60,771 nucleotides of DNA from a virus (lineage: Duplodnaviria; Caudoviricetes): the IMG/VR virus record IMGVR_UViG_3300017773_000008, positions 1 through 60,771 of that record. One strand, written 5' to 3'. This document shows positions 1,556 through 23,100 of this stretch, in pieces (position 1 is the first letter of the stretch; every line of letters starts with the position of its first letter). A program made the translations under genes and the position numbers. Below the pieces are notes generated by a model, which was given only the letters and a program-made list of their open reading frames with translations, had not been told where the DNA came from and ran no database searches.

Positions 1556-1621
1556 TTTATCTCGCAGGTCATTAACCGTAACGCATTATATAGTGAAAAA
1601 AATTTTTTTGTAAAGAAGTTT

Positions 1622-1666
1622 GGGACTCCTATAGGGGGGTCTTCCTATATAGAGGGGGGTGGGGGG
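1622..1666. other. G-tract cluster (GGG plus 3x G6) in the divergent intergenic region; candidate genome end/packaging site
   Basis: Sequence GGGACTCCTATAGGGGGGTCTTCCTATATAGAGGGGGGTGGGGGG between terS and the first early gene. The function is inferred. Confidence 0.35.
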
Positions 1667-1772
1667 TCAAACTCAGAAAATTGTGATTTATTCGAGTAAA
1701 TTAATATGTATAGAGATGTGGGGTAACATGTCAGTATAAGTGGGTGGTACGGGTACGGTATGCCTCTATCTA

Positions 1773-1834: not shown

Positions 1835-1851
1835 GTTAGGGATTCCCTAAC
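1835..1851. repeat. 17-bp palindrome copy 1 (GTTAGGG-ATT-CCCTAAC)
   Basis: Direct reading; lies in the leader of ORF 1885. Confidence 0.95.
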
Positions 1852-1884
1852 ATAACTTTAATCAAACCATGAAAGGGAAAAATT

Positions 1885-2403
1885 ATGGTTAAGAAAATGC
1901 AAAAGACTACAGTATCAAAAGAACTTGCTAAGTTAATACATAATAACGTGGCAATAGATACTGAATTTAAAGCAAGTAATAAATCAGTTCTCAATCAATT
2001 ACGTTCAGAGGATTATAAATGGACTGATTTAGTATCACCTAAATCTAAGGAAAGTACTTGTAATAAGATGTTATGGACTAGCCTAGTCGAGACTGTTGCA
2101 ATAGCATTGCCACAATCAGAGCAAGACTTACTTGCAATGGATACGAAAGAGTTATCCGACTCGGAAAAGCACGACAAGCGACTTGCTAGGCAAAAGATAG
2201 GTAGTAAACTTAAAGACTATAAGAACGCTTTAAAGCGTGACCAAATGCCAAAGCGTGAAAGAGTATTGAAGACTGACATTGAGAAGTTTTCTAACCATAT
2301 CAATACAGCGATTGAGATACTCCAGAATACTGAAGAGGATTTTCCAGAGAATATGGATTTGCCTCTGGCAATCGAGAAGCTAAAAGAATTAGTTATCGAG
2401 TAA
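1885..2403 (+). CDS. Hypothetical early protein
   Basis: 172 aa ORF with an upstream promoter and a downstream terminator. Confidence 0.75.
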   Translation: MVKKMQKTTVSKELAKLIHNNVAIDTEFKASNKSVLNQLRSEDYKWTDLVSPKSKESTCNKMLWTSLVETVAIALPQSEQDLLAMDTKELSDSEKHDKRLARQKIGSKLKDYKNALKRDQMPKRERVLKTDIEKFSNHINTAIEILQNTEEDFPENMDLPLAIEKLKELVIE

Positions 2404-2412
2404 ATAATAATC

Positions 2413-2442
2413 AGGGTGACATTAATTTGTCACCCTTTTTTT
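2413..2442 (+). terminator. Rho-independent terminator
   Basis: AGGGTGACA-TTAATT-TGTCACCCT followed by a T tract. Confidence 0.85.
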
Positions 2443-2455
2443 GTGCCTAAATTTT

Positions 2456-2573
2456 GTTAAGGATTCCCTAACATTTTTTGAAACCAGTTATTGTAGTTGC
2501 GTGGAGCATAACTTGTTAGGGCTTCCCTAACACACATTGAAACCAGTTATTGTAGTTGCGTAGAGCCTAATGT
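2456..2573 (+). repeat. Two ~59-bp tandem direct repeats, each starting with the 17-bp palindrome (copies 2 and 3, at 2456 and 2515)
   Basis: GTTA(A/G)GG(A/C)TTCCCTAACA...TTGAAACCAGTTATTGTAGTTGCGT..AGC.TAA present twice. Confidence 0.9.
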
Positions 2574-2940
2574 AACACGCTAAGTGTTTGTTTTTATTGC
2601 AATGTTACAGAATACCCCCCTAATGTTACACAATGTTACATTTATTTTGACCAAAATGTTACATTACGTTTTATGGTAGTTCGTGGTATTTCGTGGTAAG
2701 CAATGATTTGTAGTTATGTCAAAACAGTATTATTTATATATATATATATAATGTAACATTTTTAGAAAATTATACGATAACATTTGAGACGCATGACTTT
2801 GCGTATGTTTGTAACTTTTTTCTATCCATCATTTTGACCCCTTCATAATTTCCTTATTTTTGTTACATTGTGACATTGCTTTATTTTCAATAACTTAGCG
2901 ACCCTACATCTGTTACATTATGTTACATTACGTTACATTA
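2571..2940. repeat. Iteron-like TGTWACA cluster with a central (TA)n tract; putative replication origin
   Basis: TGTWACA at 2571, 2603, 2624, 2634, 2657, 2752, 2861, 2911 and 2921, plus near matches. (TA)n at ~2735-2750. The region is non-coding. Confidence 0.6.
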
Positions 2941-2986
2941 CACTGTTTACCACTACATCTAATTAGAACTAATGAATTTGAGTTAT

Positions 2987-3015
2987 TTGACATAACCTGA
3001 TATCTGTGGTATATT
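2987..3015 (+). promoter_or_regulatory. Strong sigma70-like early promoter
   Basis: TTGACA-N17-TATATT with TG extended -10; an AGGAG RBS follows before ATG 3064. Confidence 0.75.
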
Positions 3016-3063
3016 AGATAATACTCAGAATTATGTCTTTTATACAACAGAGGAGAACAAGTT

Positions 3064-3294
3064 ATGACAGGGCAGTATATCAATACTTTCGTTAGGGAAT
3101 CCCTAACATGTTCGGAATGTGACGCAGAGGTAAATCCAAAGCGTCATGCACTAGGCTACAACGTGTGTCTAGAGTGTGGAGAGATTATGGCACGTGATGT
3201 AAAGCATTGTGTCGTACCTATGCACAAGTCAAACTATACCGTCATCACTCGCAAGAGTGACCTTATCGGTATCAACAACAAGCAACCTAGTTAG
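3064..3294 (+). CDS. Small Zn-finger protein (CxxC...CxxC)
   Basis: CSEC and CLEC motifs and an AGGAG RBS. Contains palindrome copy 4, and its TAG stop lies inside copy 5. Confidence 0.75.
   Translation: MTGQYINTFVRESLTCSECDAEVNPKRHALGYNVCLECGEIMARDVKHCVVPMHKSNYTVITRKSDLIGINNKQPS
3091..3107. repeat. 17-bp palindrome copy 4 (GTTAGGG-AAT-CCCTAAC), intragenic
   Basis: Direct reading. Confidence 0.95.
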
Positions 3295-3306
3295 GGATTC
3301 CCTAAC
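3290..3306. repeat. 17-bp palindrome copy 5 (GTTAGGG-ATT-CCCTAAC)
   Basis: Direct reading; followed by ACAATATAAGGAAA RBS block. Confidence 0.95.
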
Positions 3307-3326
3307 ACAATATAAGGAAAATCATT

Positions 3327-4214
3327 ATGACTGAAGAAAATAAAATTGCAGAAACAATACCGAGCCTTGGTTCAAGTGCTTGGCTCGTAGACGTTGGTGT
3401 ATCTGTCTGGACTGGCAGAAAGCTAGACAAGAAAGCAAGCGAGGAAGTCGAGGCACAGAACAAAGCCAACCCTAATGTGGCGAATGTCCATAAGAAGTTA
3501 TTGGGTAAGTGTGATGAGTTGGTAGCCGTGCAGAAGTTTGTTGCTAATGCTCGTAACATCCATTACTCAATGACATTACCTTGGTCTGATATGGGTATGC
3601 GTCTGGTGACAACACAGATGTTTCCAAAGTATCACAAGCAGATGACCGAGTTTCAACAAGAGTTTGATAACTTGGTTGGTAAGTTCATAGGTGTATATGA
3701 TTGGGCAGTAATCAATGCTCAGACATTACTTGGGGACTTGTACAATTCAGCTAATTACCCAGACAAGAACGAGTTAATACATAAGTTCTCATGGAGAATG
3801 AATTATGTACCTCTGCCAGACGCAGGGGATTTTCGTATTGATATTGGTAACGAAGCACAAGCACAGTTGCAGGAAAGCTACAAGTCTTACTATACAACCA
3901 TGTTTGATAAAGCCAAGTCGGACTTGTCGGATAGACTAATTAAACCTCTGAAGAATATGTCGGAAAGGTTGGACTATGCAGATGATGAGGACAAGAAGAT
4001 ATTTCGTGACACGTTAGTGGATAACGTCATGGATATACTTGACCTCGTTAAGACGTTTGACCACGATACCAAACTGACTGCGACTTGTACGCAGATAGAG
4101 AACGCACTCATGGGTATAACACCTGATGCGTTGCGTGAAGATAGCACACTCCGTGCTGAAACCAAGAAGTCTATTGATGATGCAATCAAGTCGCTCCCGT
4201 CACTCGACTTCTAA
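3327..4214 (+). CDS. Conserved hypothetical helical protein (possibly DUF3150-like), upstream of the AAA/vWA pair
   Basis: 295 aa ORF with AAGGA RBS; the family assignment is from memory and tentative. Confidence 0.6.
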   Translation: MTEENKIAETIPSLGSSAWLVDVGVSVWTGRKLDKKASEEVEAQNKANPNVANVHKKLLGKCDELVAVQKFVANARNIHYSMTLPWSDMGMRLVTTQMFPKYHKQMTEFQQEFDNLVGKFIGVYDWAVINAQTLLGDLYNSANYPDKNELIHKFSWRMNYVPLPDAGDFRIDIGNEAQAQLQESYKSYYTTMFDKAKSDLSDRLIKPLKNMSERLDYADDEDKKIFRDTLVDNVMDILDLVKTFDHDTKLTATCTQIENALMGITPDALREDSTLRAETKKSIDDAIKSLPSLDF

Positions 4215-4232
4215 GACTATACACAATAACTC

Positions 4233-4249
4233 GTTAGGGAATCCCTAAC
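4233..4249. repeat. 17-bp palindrome copy 6 (GTTAGGG-AAT-CCCTAAC)
   Basis: Direct reading; followed by the same ACAATATAAGGAAA block as copy 5. Confidence 0.95.
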
Positions 4250-4270
4250 ACAATATAAGGAAACTAAACT

Positions 4271-5365
4271 ATGAATACAGCGATACAAATGTATGCACTA
4301 TCACTCAACCAAATTACTAATGCGATTAAGGTGGGTGGCAACAAGCGAACCATACTTGTGCAAGGTGACATGGGTACTGGCAAGTCATCAATACTTAACA
4401 TGTTATCAAGTGAGATGCCGTCACACACACCATGCTACTTTGACTGCACCACGAAAGACTTGGGTGACATACTCATGCCAAAACTCAAAGACCTTGAAGG
4501 CCACGACTATGTGAAGTTTGCAACCAACGAAGAACTTGGGTTACATCTAAATGATACACCCATCATTCTAATGATTGACGAGTTTGGTAAGTCGAACCCA
4601 TCAGTCAAGAACGCACTGTTACGTCTTATCCTAGAACGTAAGATTGGTGGCTACACTATGCACCCAGACAGTCTGGTGTTTGCTACAACCAACAAGGGTA
4701 GCGAAGGTGTTGGTGACTTGTTACCACCTCATGCACGTAATCGTATCACAGTCGTACAGACACGTAAGCCTACAAACATGGAGTGGGTTGAATGGGGTAT
4801 CAACAATGATATCGAACCATCTATCTTGGGTTGGGCGAAGGATAACCCACAGTTGTTTTTCTCGTTTGAAGATGTGAAGAACCCAGAGGACAACCCATAT
4901 ATCTTTCACCCTAACCAACAGAGGAATGCTTTTGTTACACCACGTTCCCTCGAAGCATCAAGCGATTGGGTAAGACAACGTAACGAGTTAGACGATACGT
5001 CACTTACTGGTATTCTCATGGGTACGATTGGTGAACGTGGTGCTATGGACTTGATGGCATACGTAAAACTGATTGACCAGATGCCTACACGTGAAGATAT
5101 TATGACAGACCCCAAGAACGCAAAGATACCAACAAGTAATGGTGCAGTTGTCATGGTGGTGTTTCGGTCATTGGCATCTATGGACAAGGACTACATCAAC
5201 CCATTCATGGACTATCTTGTCAGGCTAGACCCAGAGGCACAAGCTATGTTTGCCAATGGTGTGAGAGCCAAGGGGTATCATGCACAGTCACTCGTTATGA
5301 TGAACAAGAAGTTTACCGAGTGGTCAATGCAGAACCAACATCTCTATCAGGCAGATAAGGTATGA
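4271..5365 (+). CDS. MoxR-like AAA+ ATPase
   Basis: Walker A GDMGTGKS, Walker B ILMIDE, sensor FATTN, LPPHARNR Arg-finger region and VTPRS. Adjacent to a vWA gene. Confidence 0.85.
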   Translation: MNTAIQMYALSLNQITNAIKVGGNKRTILVQGDMGTGKSSILNMLSSEMPSHTPCYFDCTTKDLGDILMPKLKDLEGHDYVKFATNEELGLHLNDTPIILMIDEFGKSNPSVKNALLRLILERKIGGYTMHPDSLVFATTNKGSEGVGDLLPPHARNRITVVQTRKPTNMEWVEWGINNDIEPSILGWAKDNPQLFFSFEDVKNPEDNPYIFHPNQQRNAFVTPRSLEASSDWVRQRNELDDTSLTGILMGTIGERGAMDLMAYVKLIDQMPTREDIMTDPKNAKIPTSNGAVVMVVFRSLASMDKDYINPFMDYLVRLDPEAQAMFANGVRAKGYHAQSLVMMNKKFTEWSMQNQHLYQADKV

Positions 5366-5442
5366 GGTGGGATAAAGACGAACACGTGGTGGCAGGGGTG
5401 AGCCTTGCCGTCATACTAATTGTAATAGTATTTATTAGTTAG
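5362..5442 (+). CDS. 26-aa membrane peptide (MRWDKDEHVVAGVSLAVILIVIVFIS)
   Basis: ATGA overlap with the ATPase stop, one hydrophobic helix, stop codon inside palindrome copy 7. Confidence 0.5.
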   Translation: MRWDKDEHVVAGVSLAVILIVIVFIS

Positions 5443-5454
5443 GGTTTCCCTAAC
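5438..5454. repeat. 17-bp palindrome copy 7 (GTTAGGG-TTT-CCCTAAC)
   Basis: Direct reading; followed by AGAAAGGAAGA RBS block. Confidence 0.95.
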
Positions 5455-5466
5455 AGAAAGGAAGAG

Positions 5467-6657
5467 ATGTTACTAGTTAATACAAAACTATCAGTCGAGC
5501 AGAGATTACAGAAAGCCGTGTCTGATATAATGATGAACCCCAAGTACATTGCACTTGCAGGGTTGATGACGTTGGGTGAGAGAGGTGTCAAAGATGATGT
5601 ACCTACTGCTTGCACTAATGGTAAAGACGAGTGGTATGGTCGTGACTTTGTTGAAAGTCTCAATGACTCAGAGTTGAGGTTCCTCATACTGCACGAAGTG
5701 TATCACAAGTTGTATCGTCATCTGATAACGTGGCAACACCTATACAAGCGAAATGCTTTCAAAGCTAACAAGGCTTGTGACTATGTTATCAATGTGAAGT
5801 TGGTTGACGATAACGAAGATGGCTTTGCTACCATGACTGGTGAACTAGCCAATGGGTGCTTTGATGAAAAGTATCGTGGTTGGGATTCAGCACAAGTGTA
5901 CAATGACTTGTCACCAGATGATGATGAAGGTGAAGGCCCAGGCGGTCAACAACCATTTGACCAACATGATTGGGAAGGTGCAGAGGAACTAACCCCAGAC
6001 CAGAAACGTGAACTTGCCAAGGACATTGACGAGGCCATACGACAAGGTGCGTTGATTGCAGGGAAGTTGGGGTCAGGTGGTGACCGAGACCTTGCCGAAC
6101 TACTACAACCACAAGTAGATTGGCGAGAGGTGTTGCGTGACTTTATCACCGAGACTTGTGCAGGGTCAGACTATTCCACGTATCGCAGACCTAACCGAAG
6201 ATACATAGGTATGGATATAATCATGCCGAGTGGTGTGTCGGAGAAAGTCGAGGAACTGGTATTGGCTATAGACACATCAGGATCTATTGGACAGAGAGAA
6301 CTATCGGTGTTCTTGTCCGAGGTGGGGTCGATATGTGACACAGTAACACCTTCTTGTGTGAGGATACTCTATTGGGATACCGAGGTATGTCGTGAAGAGA
6401 AATACGAGATACACGAACTAGCCAATATAACGAAGTCAACCAAGCCAAGTGGTGGTGGGGGAACTATGGTCGAGTGTGTACCGAAGTACATGGCAGAGCA
6501 TGGTATCAAACCACAAGCGACTATCATTCTAACAGATGGTTACTTGGGTGGTTCATGGGGTAGTTGGACTTGCCCTACACTATGGTGCATCTTGGATAAC
6601 AAAGGCACTAACGCATCAGTCGGCAAGACAGTCCATGTCAAGTCGAGAGAACTATAA
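5467..6657 (+). CDS. HExxH metallopeptidase-like + vWA domain protein (DUF2201-type)
   Basis: PTACTNG, HEVYH, MIDAS DTSGS, GGGGT and ILTDG motifs. Confidence 0.85.
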   Translation: MLLVNTKLSVEQRLQKAVSDIMMNPKYIALAGLMTLGERGVKDDVPTACTNGKDEWYGRDFVESLNDSELRFLILHEVYHKLYRHLITWQHLYKRNAFKANKACDYVINVKLVDDNEDGFATMTGELANGCFDEKYRGWDSAQVYNDLSPDDDEGEGPGGQQPFDQHDWEGAEELTPDQKRELAKDIDEAIRQGALIAGKLGSGGDRDLAELLQPQVDWREVLRDFITETCAGSDYSTYRRPNRRYIGMDIIMPSGVSEKVEELVLAIDTSGSIGQRELSVFLSEVGSICDTVTPSCVRILYWDTEVCREEKYEIHELANITKSTKPSGGGGTMVECVPKYMAEHGIKPQATIILTDGYLGGSWGSWTCPTLWCILDNKGTNASVGKTVHVKSREL

Positions 6658-6661
6658 ACAA

Positions 6662-6678
6662 GTTAGGGTTTCCCTAAC
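6662..6678. repeat. 17-bp palindrome copy 8 (GTTAGGG-TTT-CCCTAAC)
   Basis: Direct reading; followed by ACAAACAGAAAGGAAGA RBS block. Confidence 0.95.
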
Positions 6679-6698
6679 ACAAACAGAAAGGAAGAACT

Positions 6699-7745
6699 AT
6701 GGCATATAGATATACAGATTGGAAGATTAACAGTTTTGCAGAAGTTGAAGAGAGGTACAACACAACAAAACCTGTTATCAGCAAGAACCACACAAAGGAG
6801 CAGGACATCAGACCCTATGGTTCAAGGTCACGCAAGTGGGAACGCATAGAAAAGGTAAATGCGAACTGCTACATTATATGGAATGGTGATGATGGCGACC
6901 CATACCAACACCTCTATTGGAATTGGAGTGGTAACTTGAACCCAACACCCAAGCAACAGATGGAACTTGTACCTATCGTGTGGAAACGCAAGGGTAACAT
7001 GGAGAGTATACGCATACGCAATGGTAGTGGTAACTATGCCCATTGTAGCAGATACACTTTCCTTGAGAACACGTTACCAAACACTATGGGGTTTCTCGTT
7101 GACAATGGTAAGCAGTATATAAGTTTATATAGTGATAGGCTCAAGACTGCTTCATACTTATTGCCGAAGAGCATGTATGTTCCTTTTGGTAATCGTAGAC
7201 ATGGCCATAATCATGGTATTGTTGAAACAGATGATAAGAAGTATCTGATGTTTGAACGTAAGATTGGCGAGCCAAATACAACACCTTGGCAAGTGGTCGG
7301 TGCAACGTGGGAATACATTGGTGCAAAGACAAAAGTAGACAAGCAAAGTAAGGCAGACATCAAGCCACATACTGACAAGTTCTATGAATGGATTGTTACC
7401 ATGTATCGTATGCTACCAATAACGGACAGAGATTATCGTAGTAAGATGCGTAATGAGTTTCAGGATTGGGTGTACAACAACAAGACGAACACCTATCAAG
7501 CATACATTACGGAAATCATACGTGATGAAGAACACCCCATGCGATTACACCTTGCAGTAGATTGGTTAACGCGCAGTAACCTGATTCAGTATAAATATAC
7601 CATTGATAGTGGCCGTGAAGAATTTGTAGAGGTTGACAGTGACGTAGCAAAACAAGTTAGGGCGAACTGGAACAGATACATAAACAAACAACTAGGGTTG
7701 ATATCAAAAGCAAGCCCAGAGAAAATAGAAAGGAAGCAGAGATGA
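6699..7745 (+). CDS. Hypothetical early protein
   Basis: 348 aa ORF with a good RBS. Confidence 0.75.
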   Translation: MAYRYTDWKINSFAEVEERYNTTKPVISKNHTKEQDIRPYGSRSRKWERIEKVNANCYIIWNGDDGDPYQHLYWNWSGNLNPTPKQQMELVPIVWKRKGNMESIRIRNGSGNYAHCSRYTFLENTLPNTMGFLVDNGKQYISLYSDRLKTASYLLPKSMYVPFGNRRHGHNHGIVETDDKKYLMFERKIGEPNTTPWQVVGATWEYIGAKTKVDKQSKADIKPHTDKFYEWIVTMYRMLPITDRDYRSKMRNEFQDWVYNNKTNTYQAYITEIIRDEEHPMRLHLAVDWLTRSNLIQYKYTIDSGREEFVEVDSDVAKQVRANWNRYINKQLGLISKASPEKIERKQR

Positions 7746-8623
7746 GAGATTATATAAACAAACATATAAACCCAAGGGTTAGTGGGTTGACAAGGTATAT
7801 AAATAATGGTGGACATGAACTAGAAAAGTTTACCAAGGCACTAAAGAAACACATACGTGGTGTAGAGTTTGGTGTGAAGAATGGCAGTGTCTCCAAGGTA
7901 TACGTATACATGAAGGATAACGTGTATGCTATGGGGTGGGTTGCCTATGCTGATTATCGTGACAACCCAGAACAAAATACTCTTATGTATACTGTGTGTT
8001 CCCATGCTATACGCAATGGAAAGTATAGTAGTGGCGAACAGATGCACATGAAAATGACAACAAATTTTGACGTGGGTATTAGAAATGCCAAGCGATATCT
8101 ACGCAACCTAACAACTAAGGAGATAGCACTATCTGATAAAGATGCCGTACAAAGTCAATTTCGTAAGGTAAATAGTAGTGCTAATGAAACACTTGAAAAT
8201 GCTATGCAAAATGTCTTACCACGTCGTACAACTTCTGACCGTACAAATATGGAAAGTTTTATGAGTGAACTCAAACACCTAGTAGCTATCGGACATGAGT
8301 GGATAGACCAGAGTTACGGAGCAAAACTTGTGGAGTTTATAAAAGCCTATGACGAAAAACAAACGGCTGATAAACGAACTCTTGATGTTATCTTTGTGCG
8401 TGCATTCAACAAAGCAGAGCAGACCATGTTTGAAACTATGGAGATAAACAATCTGCACGAATGGAATAGTGGTAGTGAGGGCGAAGTAGTTACATACGAT
8501 AACACTACGTTACCCGTAGAGCTGGCAGGTAAGCTATCAACTCTTAACATGTTAGGACAAGGACAGTATGTCGAAGGTGTCGGTCTGTATCATGGGGATT
8601 ATATGTATTATGTCATTAAGTGA
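7742..8623 (+). CDS. Hypothetical early protein
   Basis: 293 aa; ATGA overlap with the upstream gene. Confidence 0.75.
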   Translation: MRDYINKHINPRVSGLTRYINNGGHELEKFTKALKKHIRGVEFGVKNGSVSKVYVYMKDNVYAMGWVAYADYRDNPEQNTLMYTVCSHAIRNGKYSSGEQMHMKMTTNFDVGIRNAKRYLRNLTTKEIALSDKDAVQSQFRKVNSSANETLENAMQNVLPRRTTSDRTNMESFMSELKHLVAIGHEWIDQSYGAKLVEFIKAYDEKQTADKRTLDVIFVRAFNKAEQTMFETMEINNLHEWNSGSEGEVVTYDNTTLPVELAGKLSTLNMLGQGQYVEGVGLYHGDYMYYVIK

Positions 8624-9017
8624 ATACGAGAAAAGGCTCGACCAGTATGTTAAGAAATGGATTTCATTCCGAGAAAGGGCTGTAGACAATGCAGAAAAAT
8701 ATTATGAAATACTCAGAAGGAAAGGTGTGATGAACAAAATTCAAAAACTACAAGATGACTCGTTATATTGTATAAGTGTAGACAATGCCACTGGATGTAT
8801 TATAACTTCATGTATTGGTATACAATGTCTTGACAATCCATTAAAAGACACTTATATGTCTATAGACGAACTACCAGATTGGGTGAAGGGAAAGATAGCC
8901 GTGTTAAATATGGTTGAACTTATTAAGGATACCAACGGACAAGAGTACTCTGAAATCGTTGATGGTGTTGGATATAGATTAGGGAATACGTATTACATAG
9001 GCCCGTTAACACGTTAG
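8568..9017 (+). CDS. Hypothetical protein (true start probably 8610 or 8730); C-terminus resembles that of the upstream ORF
   Basis: ORF track; GGAAAGG RBS before ATG 8730; TAG stop inside palindrome copy 9. Confidence 0.65.
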   Translation: MSKVSVCIMGIICIMSLSEYEKRLDQYVKKWISFRERAVDNAEKYYEILRRKGVMNKIQKLQDDSLYCISVDNATGCIITSCIGIQCLDNPLKDTYMSIDELPDWVKGKIAVLNMVELIKDTNGQEYSEIVDGVGYRLGNTYYIGPLTR

Positions 9018-9029
9018 GGATTCCCTAAC
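9013..9029. repeat. 17-bp palindrome copy 9 (GTTAGGG-ATT-CCCTAAC)
   Basis: Direct reading. Confidence 0.95.
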
Positions 9030-9032
9030 AAA

Positions 9033-9075
9033 AACGGAGGGCAAAAAAATGTCCTCCGTTGAAACCAGTTTTTTT
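9033..9075 (+). terminator. Terminator-like hairpin
   Basis: AACGGAGGGCA-A6-TGTCCTCCGTT, with the T tract displaced 8 nt downstream. Confidence 0.5.
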
Positions 9076-9090
9076 GATTAGGAGTTACAC

Positions 9091-9420
9091 ATGGCAATGA
9101 CCCCAGAAAAGAAAGTGAAACAGAAAGTAACCAAACAACTAAAAGAGATTGGCGCATACTACTTTTATCCCATGACAGGTGGGTATGGTAAGAGTGGAGT
9201 GCCAGATATAATTGGTTGCTACGAGGGTAAGTTTTTTGGATTTGAATGTAAGGCAGGTAGCAATAAGCCTACACCACTACAGGAAAAGAACTTAACAGAT
9301 ATACGTGAAGCAGGTGGTGTGGCGGCGGTAATTAATGAAAATAATGTAGACGAGGTAAAAACCATTTTGGGCATGGGAGAAAATCAGCTAGAGTTTGATT
9401 TCCCTGTACAATACGAGTGA
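9091..9420 (+). CDS. VRR-NUC family nuclease (putative Holliday junction resolvase)
   Basis: TPEKKVK...GVPDII...FECKAG..KPTPLQ motif. Confidence 0.85.
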   Translation: MAMTPEKKVKQKVTKQLKEIGAYYFYPMTGGYGKSGVPDIIGCYEGKFFGFECKAGSNKPTPLQEKNLTDIREAGGVAAVINENNVDEVKTILGMGENQLEFDFPVQYE

Positions 9421-10098: not shown

Positions 10099-10237
10099 TA
10101 AATCAGAACCCTTAATTATTCGTAAGAACGATCAAAAAGCCAAAGAAAGGCGAGAGAAGATAGAGGCTAGGAAGAAACAACATGAGCATTTTATGTGGAA
10201 ACGTTTTAACAAGGAGAGTAAAAATGGAAAAAAGTAA
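10091..10237 (+). CDS. Small basic hypothetical protein (48 aa)
   Basis: Manual translation MNDKSEPLIIRK...; fills the gap between coupled genes. Confidence 0.45.
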   Translation: MNDKSEPLIIRKNDQKAKERREKIEARKKQHEHFMWKRFNKESKNGKK

Positions 10238-10667
10238 AAAAGGAAAAGTGTGGGAGATATTAGTGGACAACCCATTAATGTCAAATAAAGCTGTAGCAGA
10301 GAGGGCAGGGTGTAGTGTCAACTATGTTAGCATATTAAGGCAAAGCGTAGGCACACCAAAAGAAGTTTTTGAGGAAGAAGAGAACAAAAAACAATTTAAT
10401 AGGTCTAAGATATTACAGAGCGCAGATATCTTAGTATCAAAAGACAGGGCAGATGAGCATGGTGAAGCTATGCACAACTTTGTAGCTATCGGTGATTTGT
10501 GGAACGCATACCTTGGCCTTAATAATTTCATAACACCACAAGATGTACCTATGATGTTAGCCTTACTCAAGATGGCAAGGACAAAAGAGAACCCTGATAA
10601 CGCAGATAACTATCGTGACCTGTGTGGTTATGGTGCGTTGGCAGGAGAAGTGAGTAGGAACAAATGA
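10224..10667 (+). CDS. HTH + DUF6378-like domain protein
   Basis: N-terminal SNKAVAERAGCSVNYV HTH-like segment; C-terminal RADEHG...IGDLWNAYL...LLKMAR...DNYRDLCGYGAL; AGGAG RBS. Confidence 0.7.
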   Translation: MEKSKKGKVWEILVDNPLMSNKAVAERAGCSVNYVSILRQSVGTPKEVFEEEENKKQFNRSKILQSADILVSKDRADEHGEAMHNFVAIGDLWNAYLGLNNFITPQDVPMMLALLKMARTKENPDNADNYRDLCGYGALAGEVSRNK

Positions 10668-15648: not shown

Positions 15649-16041
15649 ATGGGTGAGATAACCCCTGATAAACTAACTAAGACGTTTTTAAAAATACGAG
15701 CAAAGCGATCTTTAATGACTGCTGAATTTAAAAAAGAAGACGATAAACTACAGCAACAACTAGATCGTGTTAAACAGGCCATGCTAGATCATTGCGAGAG
15801 GCACAATGTTCAAAGCGTTAAAAGTTCTGAAGGATTGTTCTTTACGTCTAATAAAACGAAGTATTGGGCAAGCGATTGGGATGCTATGCACACTTTTATA
15901 AAAGAGCATAATATACCAGAGCTGTTGGATAAACGTATTAATCAGACTAACATGAAGGATTTTTTAGAAGACAACCCTGATAAAGTTCCTGATGGGCTTG
16001 AGATAAGTCAGGAAACATCAATATCTGTGAGGAAAAGATGA
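15649..16041 (+). CDS. Conserved phage replication-module protein (coiled-coil)
   Basis: 130 aa, GAGGAG RBS, typical ...DWDAM..FIKEH..PELLDKRI pattern. Confidence 0.7.
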   Translation: MGEITPDKLTKTFLKIRAKRSLMTAEFKKEDDKLQQQLDRVKQAMLDHCERHNVQSVKSSEGLFFTSNKTKYWASDWDAMHTFIKEHNIPELLDKRINQTNMKDFLEDNPDKVPDGLEISQETSISVRKR

Positions 16042-16289
16042 ACGAACCTTTTGTACCAATAGAAGATGTAGCCAAGCACTTTAGTGTTTCTATATCTACT
16101 GTCCGTGCATGGGTACGTCAAAAGCACATACCAGAGGATGCTTATTTTAAGATAGGCAAGACCTACAGGTTTCGTGTTGGTGATGTAGCCAATGCACTTA
16201 CTAAAGTCACCAGTGAGGATACATCTAGTAATAAAGATGACCTTGTTGATGAACTACCAAGTCTAGATGATCTAGATGAAGACCTATAA
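16038..16289 (+). CDS. Excisionase/MerR-like HTH DNA-binding protein
   Basis: IEDVAKHFSVSISTVRAWVR...IP...KIGKTYRF. Confidence 0.8.
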   Translation: MNEPFVPIEDVAKHFSVSISTVRAWVRQKHIPEDAYFKIGKTYRFRVGDVANALTKVTSEDTSSNKDDLVDELPSLDDLDEDL

Positions 16290-20082: not shown

Positions 20083-20111
20083 AGTGGCTACTTTCGGGTA
20101 GCCACTTTTTT
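20083..20111 (+). terminator. Rho-independent terminator at the convergence of the two genome arms
   Basis: AGTGGCTAC-TTTCGG-GTAGCCACT followed by a T tract. Confidence 0.85.
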
Positions 20112-23100
20112 AATCAAAGAAGGTATAGTCGTCATTAAAAGAAGAACTTATTTCGTTTATTATATTTTTGTTACGTACAAATACACCGTTATGCTTTGCA
20201 ATGTTTTCAGATGTTTTAATGTGTCGTTTTACAGACCTTTCAATACCTTTTGGAGTTATAATAAGTTTAGGATCTCTTGCACCAAAAGTCCTGTTCCACT
20301 CTACCATTTTTTGTAGTGCTTCTGCCATACCACTTGCATCACCTGTTCGATACGCTCTGTAGTATTGTGTAGTTAAAGTAGTCTTCTTTTTACTAATAGA
20401 CTTGTCAATTCTATTTTTAATATCGTTCTTCTCCATAGTATTAGTATATTCCACAGGAGGAAAACCAAACAACAACCCTGCTAAATCTCCTGTTGTCACG
20501 TCATCAAATATAGGATCGCCACGCCTTGTTTTATACCCCTCTTCTCTTACTCTACCTAGTGCTTTATATACGTTTGCTATACCTGCAGGGAGAAAACTCT
20601 CAATAGCTCGTTGTACATTTATAGTGTCTTTACGTTCACCAAAAGCAGGTAAACCTAAATCTAACGCTCCTCTGTTTATTCTATCTAATGTACCGAAAGC
20701 AGGCCCACCTGCATAATGAAAAAATGATTCTTCAAGTGAAGCATCGCGGTTAAACCTGTTTTCTTGTATTAATAACCCAGTGAGACGTATACGAGTCGCT
20801 ACATCTACACCTGTCATATAATTAACAAGACCCTTATACGTGGGTTCACGGAACTGCCCACGAACTATTGAATCAAAATCCTCATCATCTTCCCCTAAGA
20901 AAGCGTTTGCTATCATCTCTATTGCTCCATAAAGGGGTAGACCTTGAACTCCTGCAAATAACAACGCACTCACATGCACCCCTGCTAACTGTTTAAAAGC
21001 TATGTATCTATCCTCTGGAGGTAATGACTTATCCATAAGTTCTTTTGTAGATTTAAGCATAGTAGAATACATACGCAGTCCATATGTTTTATACATAAAA
21101 GCTACACGACCAAGGTTTTGCTGTGAGTATCTAGGCCCTGTTTCTAAAACTGCACCGCCATTCGTTTCTTGTGTCTGTCTAAGAGCTTTTTCTGCGGCTC
21201 GTTCTGTAGCACCTTCAATTTTGCTTGCAGCTTTAGATACGTCCGCAAAACTTTTCATTTTACCTTTTGGATCTACCTCTTGTCGTAGCGCAAGCTGATA
21301 AGAGGTTAGCAAGGTAACCTGTCTGTTAAAACGTTCCGCCTGATTAAACATCACAGCAGAAAGACTTGTTAGGTTGTCAAGACTCAACACATCCATAACT
21401 CTATCTTTTTTATCTTTTCTACGAGATAAAGCTCCTCCTTCTTCGCCTAAACCTAAAGCGTCTGCTAAGAAAGTTCTTGTTAACTGCCCTCTTTGTGAAG
21501 CTAACTTAATCAAAGGCAATACGGAGTCAGCTATTTCTTTTTGTCTTGGAGATAAATCTCTTTTTACACCATAAGTTTCTATAGAGTCTTTTATTTTGTA
21601 TGTTCTATTTACAGGATCAAAATCAAATAGCTGATCTATATTATTACCTGAGTTTGTAACTATTCTAGTAGCATTGCCTAACGCTCTGCTTGTTTTTACA
21701 AATCCATATTCAGCGCCAAGATAAGGGTAAACAAACAAAGGGACTTGAGATAAGTTAACTAATGCAGAGGAGGCATTAGCACCTATGGTATACACAAATG
21801 CTAACTGATTAGCAGTTTTTACAAATTGCTCTATGCCTTTATAATCTGCTCCCTGTGTAGCAAACTTTGCTCTTCTGTTAAGTTCTTCAGTAATTTTAGA
21901 TATTGCGGGTGCAATTTTTGGGTTTGTTACCTCTAATTCTTTTGCTTTCTTAGTCATGTCTTTTACTATGGCTCGTATATTAGCATTATTTTTTAACTGT
22001 GCTACCTGTCTTCCCAGAGCAAGACCTTTTTTATTAAAAGCAAAAACAGAATCAGGTATGTAACCTTTAACACCTTCTCGTCTTGATAATGATTTTGCAA
22101 AAGAAGTTTCTGGTAACGTGTTTATAAACAACTGCACAATGTCACTTTGTAAATCATCTTTTACTGTTTTATCTAACCCTTGAGCTGCATTGAGTATGTC
22201 CATTACTTGACCAACAAAAGATGTAGGGGGCGCGGTTCTAAAAATCTCTTTTGTTTTGTCAGCGGTGTCAGCCATTTGTATAGTAGTTTGGTCTACATCT
22301 GGATTTTCTTTTAATTCTTCAGCTCTTGTTACTTGTTCTGCTTGCGTGCTTACTAATTCGTATACTCTTGGGTCACCAATGTCTTCACCAGCATCTTTTC
22401 TCTTTTTCATAATTTCTGGTTTTATATTATAAGCCACCACATAATTACCCTCACGAACAAGAGGGAAGTATACATCCAAAGCCTTATTATCAAATATTTT
22501 TTTAAATACGCTTTGTAATCTTTCTGATACTTTTACACCATCCGCGTCAACCTCACCACCTACTGCTTTATCTGCCTGAAGTCCTAGAGCTTCTTGCAGT
22601 TGAGTAAAGTATCTTTTATAGTAGTTACGCATCTCATCAAATGCGTCTCTACCCTGTTGCCCAAAGTCAGGGTTATTCTTCCATATTTTCTGTTGGTCAT
22701 CCCATACTTCTTCTAACTTCCTGTCGCCTATATTTTTATTTTCGTATTCTTTTCTTGGTTTTGTGGGGTCTACCTGATAGATAGTAGCACCGAAACTACG
22801 GCTATATATAAGCTCATCAAGTAAATCTCTTCGTTTTGTATTGTCTTTTAACTTTCGCATAACCTTTGTTTTAACGTCCTCAAAGTCACGCCCTGCAGCA
22901 TCCATGTCTCCACGTTGGTCGTTAAATGCGTTTAATAGCTGCTCTCCAAACCCTACATTGTTGTCATCTACCAAACCTGTTTCGTTAGCCATATTACTAA
23001 CCGTTAACATGTCAGAGAGTCCTGTAAGTATATTTTTAGCCACTGTACCCACTTTAGTATCACCTAAGAAAGATATAGAATCTAATATAAAACCCCTACC

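Follow-up and report, generated by a model that had tools for sequence, protein, structure and literature searches.

The window analysed here, the whole 60,771-nt stretch, derives from an uncultured marine phage. Its rightward early block carries an array of short palindromes marking almost every gene boundary of the early operon. The exact sequence GTTAGGG-N3-CCCTAAC occurs eight times (at 1835, 2515, 3091, 3290, 4233, 5438, 6662 and 9013), against a mean of 0.00 matches in 100 dinucleotide-preserving shuffles. Allowing up to two mismatches brings the number of palindromes to nine (0.13 expected), the added copy being that at 2456 (GTTAAGG...); a reversed control pattern has no match in the whole record. 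At up to one mismatch the 60.8-kb record likewise holds nine copies, all within 1835-9029 (7.2 kb). Their + strand centres are ATT (four copies), AAT (two), TTT (two) and CTT (one). The preliminary description of this DNA had listed the same nine copies, eight exact and one with a single mismatch, none elsewhere, with nearly invariant arms around a varying centre. All of this holds, the last point also at the orthologous sites of relatives. It had further placed the array beside a putative genome end, as DNA that may enter the cell before the rest, and this is not supported. A single large terminase gene on the - strand is split between the window ends: its fragments 1-963 and 60130-60771 correspond to TerL residues 7-325 and 309-521, respectively, in a relative. 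The record is thus cut inside terL and the array does not lie beside a demonstrated physical genome end.

The palindromes (coordinates given without strand) follow the gene order closely. Copy 1 (1835..1851, GTTAGGGATTCCCTAAC) precedes the first rightward gene (1885..2403, + strand), which starts 33 nt further on and encodes an all-helical protein of 172 aa. An intrinsic-terminator-like hairpin with a T-run lies 3' of this gene (2413..2436, + strand), and 20 nt past its stem comes copy 2 (2456..2472), the one with the mismatch. Copy 3 (2515..2531, centre CTT) belongs to the second tandem unit of this non-coding region; both copies are followed by GAAACCAGTT. The zinc-ribbon gene and the remainder of the early operon are preceded by a sigma-70-type early promoter (2987..3015, + strand), predicted by its match to 11 of the 12 consensus positions (TTGACA-17-TATATT with an upstream TG). 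Copy 4 (3091..3107) occupies codons 10-15, early in the zinc-ribbon gene and at roughly +70 relative to the start predicted for this promoter. The next four copies are found at gene junctions: copy 5 (3290..3306, containing a TAG stop) between the zinc-ribbon and DUF3150-like genes, copy 6 (4233..4249) between the DUF3150-like and AAA ATPase genes, copy 7 (5438..5454) between the ATPase gene, with its 26-aa mini-ORF, and the vWA/DUF2201 gene, and copy 8 (6662..6678) between the latter and gene 6699. Copy 9 (9013..9029) lies at the end of gene 8568 and is followed by a hairpin, by GAAACCAGTT with a T-run and by the VRR-NUC gene. This hairpin, terminator-like with an 11-bp stem (9033..9060, + strand), stands at the early operon end between copy 9 and GAAACCAGTTTTTTT; the predicted fold of 9003-9099 reaches -31.1 kcal/mol (z -4.2).

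Only 13% of the interval 1835-9029 is non-coding. With respect to the main CDSs, six copies are wholly outside, two overlap by the 5 bases that include the stop codon and one (3091) is wholly inside. The ends of five copies lie 12-33 nt from an ATG provided with a purine-rich ribosome-binding site (1885, 3327, 4271, 5467 and 6699), in agreement with the preliminary description; for six of the nine, a start codon follows 12-61 nt past the copy end. The three ORFs said to stop on the TAG of the element (3064-3294, 5362-5442 and 8568-9017) do terminate there, in the left arm.

A promoter scan detected no + strand sigma-70-like site that overlaps one of the nine copies or ends in the 60 nt before it. 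The early promoter comes closest, with its end at 3015, 76 nt before copy 3091. Equivalent sigma-70-type promoters, also consensus matches, are present in relatives (L016 5707-5735, L021 5280-5308, L110 7722-7750). Since strong conserved promoters of this type precede the operon, the host RNA polymerase is predicted to suffice for early transcription. In GC-richer relatives the orthologue of copy 1 is located 25-40 nt upstream of the TTGACA -35 element; copies occur 8-9 nt upstream of the -35 of the first promoter in L023 and L018, and 37 nt upstream in L110. Others are found just past intrinsic terminators (2456 in the window, 6988 in L110) and, in a distant clade, the last copy separates a terminator from the VRR-NUC gene promoter. 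Some copies therefore sit where no transcript is expected, upstream of the first promoter or just after terminators, an observation that counts for a site in DNA.

The preliminary description had suggested a scan of relatives for the motif. The same palindrome is present at the same gene junctions in at least 25 further viral contigs whose GC content ranges from 40 to 57%, and the clade has kept its gene order. Other lineages carry at these junctions a different palindrome of their own, such as GTAGTTT-N-AAACTAC, TAGCCA-C-TGGCTA or GCGACAT-N-ATGTCGC. In two nearly complete relatives the copies are likewise confined, nine within 9.7 kb of 60.3 kb and seven within 9.1 kb of 60.7 kb. The zinc-ribbon gene has kept a palindrome at its start or ahead of it in L005, L010/11, L016, L020-24 and L092, among others, and the junction between the DUF3150-like and AAA ATPase genes has one in relatives of every palindrome type of the close clade. 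The junction of copy 9 carries the lineage's own palindrome in L007, L008, L009, L010, L011 and L019. According to the ATPase tree, nested lineages have switched all their sites to the TAGCC, ACCTGC or GTAGTK types, and the distant clade exhibits swaps of the inner stem inside a conserved GACA...TGTC frame. L009 is mixed, with three sites of the TAGCC type and one of the GTTAGGG type. In some lineages copies fall inside coding sequence (L006, 2715 and 4187). This conservation of positions while the sequence changes suggests that the palindromes are most likely the binding sites of a putative phage regulator.

The symmetry of the element extends further than the window alone would indicate. Among 123 unique-context sites from 25 relatives and the window, the centres are ATT (40), AAT (39), ACT (33), AGT (5) and others (6). 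A occupies the first centre position in 118 sites and T the third in 121, while the central base varies (T 42, A 41, C 33, G 7); of the flanking positions, +1 is A in 110 and -1 is T in 68. Originally described in a 17-bp form with an N3 centre, the element is clade-wide 8-N1-8 and, weakly, 9-N1-9: tGTTAGGGA-N-TCCCTAACa, about 19 bp. The palindromes of the other lineages are similarly symmetric through the centre. The outer bases of the centre could not pair within a 3-nt hairpin loop and yet are complementary, which is predicted by a two-fold symmetric protein-DNA site and not by a hairpin. Strict conservation of the arms, rather than compensatory change, is observed at orthologous sites with flanks 71-72% identical: arm positions are identical at 60/60, 36/36 and 71/72, and centres at only 9/15, 7/9 and 11/18. 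As judged from these alignments, selection is acting on the sequence of the palindrome and not on pairing alone.

The nine palindromes would then correspond to a multi-site dyad operator, read as double-stranded DNA by a co-evolving phage protein, an interpretation that we hold with moderate confidence. Among the three options considered in the preliminary description it provides the best fit, given symmetry to a single base, invariant arms, lineage-specific sequence, conserved positions and placement relative to promoters and terminators. A sequence-specific, probably dimeric protein would bind the ~19-bp dyad and control the early block as it is transcribed by host RNA polymerase. Copies are placed past the early promoters, where almost all cistrons adjoin and beside the terminators that close transcription units, as well as upstream of the first promoter in relatives; bound there, the protein may block or pause the elongating polymerase and tune nearby promoters and terminators. 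The presumed outcome is a stoperator-like timing or shut-off of the early genes. The occurrence of an identical palindrome in genomes of 40-57% GC, together with the switching of all sites in nested lineages, argues that the binder is encoded by the phage rather than by its host. The placement of the copies is also tied to translation starts, their ends lying 1-33 nt before ribosome-binding sites; this speaks against an operator, and a role in RNA explains it more directly. The two palindrome types of L009 are likewise awkward for a strictly specific binder.

Three window proteins are candidate binders. The product of the first gene (1885..2403) qualifies by position alone, in its own transcription unit flanked by palindromes. 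Its family has no family match, and the similarity of its fold to sigma region 4 is sub-threshold (Z 5.5-5.9; chance alone often gives helical models 8-13). The second, restricted to the close clade as a candidate, combines a DUF6378 domain with an N-terminal helix-turn-helix (HTH) motif recognised by eye (10182..10667, + strand). It is 32-37% identical to its counterparts in relatives, where neighbouring genes are 60-80% identical; DUF6378 gave no match in five records of the palindrome-bearing distant clade, in a search whose controls were equally silent. The third is an 83-aa HTH_17 protein of MerR/excisionase type (16038..16289, + strand), matched in three of five relatives' records, two of them weakly. 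Both HTH proteins, listed at 10224 and 16038 in the preliminary description, had been singled out there as possible binders. Integrase and repressor families were absent from the 38 window ORFs scanned with Pfam and/or PHROGs, which include only these two HTH proteins.

Alternatively, each copy may act in the polycistronic early mRNA as a 7-bp hairpin 5' of the next ribosome-binding site. A phage RNA-binding protein or nuclease would recognise it, with a role in processing or stabilising the cistrons or in controlling their translation. RNase III sites between the T7 early genes and coat-protein or Com-type operators are analogues. We regard this as possible, if somewhat doubtful. The six window copies preceding start codons and the three holding the upstream stop codon agree with it, and all copies lie within regions of one-strand genes. 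The element is predicted to form an independent hairpin in RNA (-9.2 kcal/mol), with the ribosome-binding site left unpaired in all four simple junction folds. On the sense strand C is preferred over G at the centre (21 ACT-majority groups to 4 AGT-majority, among 94 groups of similar flanks), and the consensus outer stem of the L020-25 lineage keeps G·T and not A·C pairs. However, ATT and AAT are equally frequent on this strand (40:39), the imperfection of copy 2456 is an A·C mismatch there, and 80 deduplicated sites hold 41 G·T pairs against 49 A·C, with no G·U excess. The loop drifts freely, whereas known hairpin-binding proteins usually read it, and the complementarity of its outer bases is of no use to a triloop. 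Copies upstream of the first promoter or past strong terminators are difficult to accommodate, as are those of L006 within coding sequence, where cleavage would be harmful. Contigs from marine RNA libraries neither show nor exclude transcript ends at the element. The hairpin option of the preliminary description is left with no positive RNA signature. Its third option is a joint like the PeSL of T4-type phages. On this view the repeats would serve either as short stretches of homology or as mobile palindromes of the kind represented by T4 PeSL cassettes and the REP elements of bacteria. Early genes would be gained, lost and shuffled through them, and gene conversion would keep the copies identical; we consider this quite unlikely. 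Across 89 pairs of relatives, 71 of 489 alignment ends (15%) are no more than 30 nt away from a palindrome centre against 6.8% at random, an enrichment of 2.2-fold that is inseparable from the tendency of intergenic regions to accumulate indels, because palindromes are present in almost all intergenic spacers. Individual cases agree with a joint: a 187-bp insertion distinguishing L010 from L011 starts about 31 nt after a palindrome, one of 225 bp between L024 and L025 ends about 13 nt before another, the extra genes of L068, L092 and L124 each bring their own upstream copy, and one junction has had its whole palindrome swapped between two genomes that are 96% identical. Nevertheless, about 85% of the breakpoints are more than 30 nt from any palindrome, gene order is conserved in the clade, and homogenisation alone leaves the identity of the arms between genomes of 40% and 57% GC unexplained. 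A search of the genome for a Y1 (HUH) transposase (PF01797) was negative, its controls being detected in 7 of 14 genomes.

Recruitment to the early region of a protein conserved among hosts, for instance a global regulator or a nucleoid protein, is very unlikely. It would account for a sequence kept over deep phage divergence (ATPases 45-70% identical) and for the lack of an identified phage binder. It does not sit well with the identical site in phages of 40-57% GC, a range that implies different hosts, nor with the unrelated palindromes of closely nested lineages. Moreover, among the matches listed, at least 120 bacterial or archaeal contig stretches contain the pattern once each, one contig having three within 250 nt; this single occurrence in all but one stretch yields no candidate host regulon. 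We give hardly any credence to an element acting as single-stranded DNA, whether a replication hairpin or an N4-type promoter for a virion or phage RNA polymerase, and N4-type hairpin promoters are in themselves unlikely. The geometry fits: with a 7-bp stem, inside the N4-type range of 5-7 bp, and a 3-nt loop, in nine copies upstream of early genes, the element recalls LUZ7. There, nine early starts go with stems of 4 bp or more whose 3-nt loop is conserved, transcription beginning 13-14 nt from the hairpin centre (PMC9163698). Both N4 and LUZ7 repeat a short stem and 3-nt loop before early genes on one side of the genome, as in the window (PMC4496689, PMC9163698). However, the N4 promoters are described as requiring specific loop and stem bases and the virion RNA polymerase, which reads the loop-centre base as a purine (PMC4496689), whereas the central base is free here, not purine-restricted, and early transcription is already accounted for by the conserved sigma-70-type promoters. 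In the search for an RNA polymerase, made at the level of sequence, the giant proteins had no family match and no match to solved-structure sequences, and PF00940 was not found in a search without positive control. The 1942-aa protein resembles polyvalent LPD/PLxRFG virion proteins.

Viewed as an operator array, the palindromes would resemble the stoperators or the Cluster O repeats of mycobacteriophages. Corndog and other Cluster O phages contain a 17-bp repeat, 5'-TGTTCGGNNNCCGAACA, for which the authors predict a dimeric DNA-binding protein and whose function is described as unexplained (PMC4351075). Both elements have two invariant 7-bp inverted arms around a variable 3-bp spacer in which T/A-rich centres are commonest, and in both many copies are intergenic and some lie near gene 5' ends; according to the Cluster O account, no integrase is known there either (PMC4351075). 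The sequence, host and phage type nevertheless differ. Cluster O genomes carry more than 30 copies throughout, about one third of them in genes and not tied to translation starts (PMC4351075), whereas the window has nine in one 7-kb early block, eight of them outside or edging genes. Moreover, the Cluster O description concerns five closely related genomes sharing the same repeat (PMC4351075), in contrast to the deep conservation and lineage switching seen among relatives of the window. In Cluster A phages (L5, Bxb1), repressor binding to stoperators terminates elongation (PMC9283540, PMC6550527). There too, many copies of one short site are spread through transcription units, and motifs and repressors differ between subclusters (PMC9283540, PMC6550527), as the palindrome does between lineages here. 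Stoperators, however, are asymmetric sites for a monomeric immunity repressor with two domains; a genome may hold up to about 30 of them, and the phages are temperate, as reported in these sources (PMC9283540, PMC6550527). The window sites are dyad-symmetric to a single central base and limited to the early block, with no repressor or integrase found among the 38 ORFs scanned. T4-type PeSL elements are also repeated stem-loops between early genes, some of them variable among relatives. These include an early promoter and have been proposed as recombination joints; in the window no promoter motif accompanies the junction copies 3290, 4233, 5438 and 6662, gene order is conserved and breakpoint enrichment is just 2.2-fold. 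The window also differs from REP elements with their RAYT in the negative transposase search.

Beyond the operator itself, a more speculative and rather improbable extension is that the palindromes and a fast-evolving phage protein provide the early operon of a virulent phage with an address code of its own, in which lineages would repeatedly have recoded all sites together. The protein might be the fold-orphan family of the first gene, in its own operator-flanked transcription unit. With all sites recoded at once, co-infecting relatives could not cross-regulate each other. If true, such a code would be to lytic phages what heteroimmunity is to temperate ones, and the DNA-binding protein behind it would belong to a new class.

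The exact pattern GTTAGGG-N3-CCCTAAC is found eight times in the window (at 1835, 2515, 3091, 3290, 4233, 5438, 6662 and 9013) and not once in 100 shuffled sequences. With up to two mismatches allowed, the only additional copy is that at 2456 (GTTAAGG...), which gives nine observed against 0.13 expected. A pattern search of the whole 60,771-bp record returns the same nine copies and no others, as the preliminary description had claimed, and the reversed control pattern gives none. Other details of that description were also recovered: the centres vary (ATT, AAT, TTT and CTT), five copies end 12-33 nt 5' of an ATG with a purine-rich ribosome-binding site and three open reading frames stop on the TAG of the left arm. 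Non-coding sequence makes up just 13% of the interval 1835-9029. Of the nine copies, six do not touch the main coding sequences, two share only a stop codon with them and one (3091) is in a gene. Across the loci compared, spacings between tandem copies (59, 79, 81, 30, 100, 110, 118 and 160 nt) share no helical phase. A 26-aa hydrophobic mini-ORF (5362-5442) overlaps the stop codon of the ATPase gene and has as its own stop the TAG within the 5438 palindrome.

The window is 98% complete by the record's own estimate and is cut within the large terminase gene. Its two terminal fragments, both on the minus strand (1-963 and 60130-60771), match residues 7-325 and 309-521 of the TerL of one relative; no exact overlap was found between the two ends. 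The genome end beside which the array had been placed is therefore an assembly artefact. Leftward genes encode terminase and structural proteins (portal, capsid, a 1942-aa polyvalent PLxRFG/LPD-like protein and further giant proteins). The rightward block starts at 1885 and its first part (1885-9017) comprises, in order, a 172-aa orphan gene, about 660 bp of non-coding DNA, a zinc-ribbon gene, a DUF3150-like gene, an AAA ATPase, a DUF2201 metallopeptidase/vWA gene and three orphan genes. It is followed by genes for a VRR-NUC nuclease, a family A DNA polymerase, an exonuclease, a SNF2 helicase, a Gp2.5-like single-stranded DNA-binding protein and a primase-helicase. All relatives retain the trio at 3327-6657 (DUF3150-like, MoxR/CbbQ-like AAA ATPase and DUF2201 metallopeptidase/vWA). 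In PHROGs the vWA family carries the name 'HNH endonuclease', which its Pfam domains do not back.

The best plus-strand match to a sigma-70-type promoter (2987-3015, TTGACA-17-TATATT with TG) lies directly 5' of the zinc-ribbon gene. The first gene is followed by a terminator-like hairpin (2413-2436), and the last copy by a second strong hairpin (9033-9060). Family and structure-sequence searches, one of them run without a positive control, detected no phage RNA polymerase. Given this promoter and the lack of a detected phage polymerase, the array punctuates an early block probably transcribed by the host polymerase. The giant virion proteins were considered as a hidden RNA polymerase and searches gave no support for this. 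Among them, the 1942-aa protein (20110-25938, minus strand) matches in its C-terminal half the PLxRFG/'DarB-like' giant proteins of ~60-kb podoviruses and resembles in its N-terminal half polyvalent-protein clusters with LPD domains. It is probably an injected multi-domain virion protein.

A search of viral contigs with the vWA protein identified 24 related loci (41-66% identity; designated by L-numbers) in which gene order is kept. An array of the window motif is missing from all 24, and a single copy occurs in L009 only. Seventeen of them have three to nine copies of another palindrome, with 6-bp arms: GTAGTT-N3-AACTAC (L005), GTAGTG-N3-CACTAC (L006, L007 and L019), TAGCCA-C-TGGCTA (L008 and L009), ACCTGC-N3-GCAGGT (L010 and L011), GTGTCA-N3-TGACAC (L016 and L027), GCGACA-N3-TGTCGC (L020, L021, L022, L024 and L025) or types with a 5-nt centre (L018 and L023). 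At the same places, the other seven carry longer elements of 27-29 nt in which a conserved outer frame, GACA...TGTC (or GAACA...TGTTC), encloses an inner palindrome specific to the lineage. At least six palindrome classes were seen in all. The relatives use the same junctions as the window. Copies are found at the zinc-ribbon gene or 5' of it, upstream of the ATPase, downstream of vWA and upstream of VRR-NUC, and tandem copies occupy the non-coding stretch. Confinement is likewise seen in two nearly complete relatives, with 9 copies within 9.7 kb (of 60.3 kb) and 7 within 9.1 kb (of 60.7 kb).

The exact pattern was found in at least 114 stretches of the viral collection. At least 26 loci hold three or more copies and at least 25 of these encode early-protein homologues in the order of the window (ATPase 45-68% and DNA polymerase 61-69% identical). 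An identical palindrome has therefore been kept across deep divergence, in relatives ranging from 40% to 57% GC. Loci of the GTTAGGG type occur throughout the clade closest to the window in the ATPase tree, a deep branch included. Nested inside this clade are the TAGCC and ACCTGC lineages, which group together, and also the GTAGTK lineages, a pattern that suggests at least two switches of palindrome; some branches are long and the placement of L005 and L094 is unsure.

Outside these viruses, among 120 bacterial and archaeal stretches listed, contigs carry the pattern once each, save one. This contig (L189, from a Bdellovibrionota metagenome-assembled genome), the sole multi-copy contig among the matches listed, has three exact palindromes within 250 nt (4793-5052), which may represent phage-derived sequence binned with the genome or a clue to the host. 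A nucleotide search against cultured phages gave no match and protein searches retrieved only distant cultured relatives (DNA polymerase at most 35% identical). No recurrent palindrome was found in the first 50 kb of Pseudomonas phage KPP25. Rhizobium phage RHph_TM3_14A (L030, 1-50000; DNA polymerase 35% identical) carries GTTACC-N6-GGTAAC 15 times across its structural and early regions. The literature terms searched returned no description of this phage group or motif.

With every locus read in the sense direction of the early genes, 139 sites reduced to 123 unique contexts. Their centres are ATT (40), AAT (39), ACT (33), AGT (5), CGT (2), TTT (2), AAA (1) and AAC (1): the first base is A in 118 of 123 and the third is T in 121. 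The base following the element is A in 110 cases and that preceding it is T in 68, a lower count plausibly explained by this position often being the last base of a stop codon. From these counts the full element is tGTTAGGGA-N-TCCCTAACa, symmetric to one free central base pair. Symmetry through the centre is shared by several other lineages. Bases adjacent to the centre are unable to pair in a hairpin, whose minimum loop is three; their complementarity is predicted by a two-fold symmetric protein-DNA complex and not needed by a hairpin. At orthologous sites whose flanks are 71-72% identical, the arms are conserved at 60/60, 36/36 and 71/72 positions and the centres at 9/15, 7/9 and 11/18, which indicates that sequence, beyond pairing, is under selection and that the centre is nearly neutral. 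Among 80 deduplicated sites of all lineages, 41 G·T were counted against 49 A·C, so the wobble signature of a sense-strand RNA helix is absent. The L020-25 lineage has a G·T in its consensus outer stem on the sense strand. The central base of the sense strand is far more often C than G (ACT 33 vs AGT 5; majority groups 21 vs 4 among 94 similar-flank groups), with A and T balanced (41 and 42 of 123). This bias may result from avoidance of GGAG-like sequences.

Three readings had been offered for the palindrome: an operator, an RNA hairpin and a recombination joint. The first fits the facts best. An RNA hairpin for processing or translational control, which we consider rather unlikely, would give the best account of the tight link to translation starts. 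As RNA, the element is predicted to fold independently (-9.2 kcal/mol) and to leave the ribosome-binding site free, and it would lie inside transcripts in layouts where a palindrome precedes a terminator (at 9013 and in L071, L075, L093, L105 and L112). However, this reading has no positive signature and clashes both with symmetry through the centre and with copies 5' of promoters or 3' of terminators, which are not expected in RNA unless there is read-through. The window copies at 2456 and 2515 are downstream of the first gene's terminator. In L110, two strong promoter matches each have a palindrome at about +35 from the predicted start, a third promoter (that of the first gene) has one 37 nt 5' of its -35 element and a further copy lies 34 nt after a terminator. 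In L023 and L018, of the distant clade, 8-9 nt separate the end of the first copy from the downstream -35 element of the first rightward promoter. The last copy in the distant clade follows a strong intrinsic terminator and precedes the VRR-NUC promoter. Four marine RNA-labelled runs yielded small Logan contigs (shares 0.07-0.13), one of which bridges the 5438 copy; at the 6662 copy one marine RNA contig ends 2 nt before it and another crosses its 3' edge, a pattern that decides nothing since assembled contigs cannot show transcript ends.

That the element is a recombination joint or a mobile palindrome appears improbable. Breakpoints between relatives are indeed 2.2-fold enriched near elements, as this reading anticipated (15% vs 6.8% within 30 nt), and two indels abut palindromes, but the majority of breakpoints fall elsewhere, the enrichment is confounded with intergenic location and a transposase search of the genome found none. 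L008 and L009, which are 96% identical, differ at one junction, where the whole palindrome is swapped (GTTAGCCACTGGCTAGC vs GTTAGGGATTCCCTAAC). The swap (L008 3409-3425 vs L009 4908-4924) involves compensatory arm changes, CC/GG to GG/CC, and leaves L009 with three sites of one type and one of another. A site for a host factor would be harder still to defend: the GC range of the carriers and the lineage switches are difficult to reconcile with it. A hairpin promoter of the N4 type could account for an element placed upstream of genes, yet the central base of the palindrome is free and the searches detected no such polymerase, which makes this the most doubtful of the proposals.

The operator reading, to which we give about an even chance, supposes a dyad-symmetric site on double-stranded DNA recognized by a phage-encoded protein whose specificity would co-evolve with its sites. 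The copies lie after promoters, between cistrons and beside terminators and could thus stop or pause the host polymerase when bound, which would set the timing of the early block. The binding, its effect and the protein itself are all what we infer. Several proteins are candidate binders. The first gene (1885-2403, plus strand) forms its own promoter-to-terminator unit between palindromes, and all GTTAGGG-type loci that include this region have a homologue. The model of its family (pLDDT 82) is all-helical; no protein family was assigned and Foldseek matched nothing. VIA-align gave a best Z of 6.1 and several sigma-factor region 4 rows at 5.5-5.9, scores under the tool's own noise level for helical models, and Pfam detected a sigma family in none of the 15 family members; the likeness to sigma region 4 was rejected. 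The HTH-DUF6378 protein at 10182-10667 is a further candidate, only 32-37% identical to its copies in relatives vs 60-80% for neighbouring genes. DUF6378 was not found in the distant clade by a search with no matches anywhere, so this absence is weak evidence. The HTH_17 protein at 16038-16289 and the zinc-ribbon protein (3064-3294) are also candidates. The latter is conserved in all lineages; Foldseek of its model (pLDDT 72) gave no matches at E <= 0.001, its weak rows including DksA, TraR and RING fingers.

Other repeats accompany the palindromes. A second motif, (G)A(A/T)(A/G)CCAGTT, is located 7-38 nt 3' of certain copies (30 of 183 vs 2.3 expected), at 2480-2489, 2539-2548 and 9061-9070 in the window and in L005, L010/11, L049, L092, L105, L110, L118, L132 and other relatives. 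It is retained even where the lineage palindrome differs. About 10 nt past this motif, the tandem units of the non-coding region have a GC-rich box (AGCGGCGAG; GCGTGGAGC in the window). The motif may serve as a promoter-like element, or one associated with an origin, under the control of the palindrome next to it. A cluster of iteron-like (A)TGTTAC(A) repeats in both orientations (2568-2945) separates the tandem palindromes from the early promoter and includes a (TA)8 run at about 2738-2755; of the 11 copies of ATGTTACA in the genome, six fall inside 2602-2927. Similar repeats and (TA)n stretches are present at the matching place in L010, L011 and L016. This cluster may be a replication origin or the binding array of a second regulator. 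In addition, G-rich tracts (GGGGGGT, GGGGTGGGGGG) are present in both clades where the small terminase gene and the first rightward gene diverge (window 1621-1670; L005 about 3985-4012; L016 about 2910-3090; L018 about 3850-3990; L023 about 2800-2930).

The nearest described architecture is the repeat of Cluster O mycobacteriophages. Its description, based on five closely related genomes, reports a 17-bp 7-N3-7 repeat whose arms are invariant and whose centre varies; a dimeric protein is predicted to bind it, and no function is known (PMC4351075). Unlike the window array, that repeat is described as present in more than 30 copies genome-wide and without a tie to translation starts. The nearest functional model, as judged from its description, is the stoperator system, whose sites are presented as asymmetric and belong to temperate phages, in contrast to the dyad sites of the window (PMC9283540, PMC6550527). 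As copy spread, site symmetry and phage type differ, we place the window array in neither family. Palindromic operator arrays as such are already known. The array is real and conserved, its mechanism being proposed; what is new is the evolutionary picture, in which positions are fixed, sequence is frozen across widely differing GC contents and nested lineages are re-coded in a concerted manner, as well as the two-tier palindrome of the distant clade.

Dozens of relatives with fixed positions and a sequence either frozen (40-57% GC) or switched wholesale provide what the published case lacks, a natural experiment that narrows the mechanism to sequence-specific recognition of a symmetric site. 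The binder should be findable through co-variation or a simple binding screen. If bound copies do not act as roadblocks, the alternatives (a hairpin code in mRNA or a recombination signal) are equally poorly documented. If they do, stoperator-like control would reach beyond temperate actinophages and these phages would offer compact, mutually independent operator-regulator pairs.
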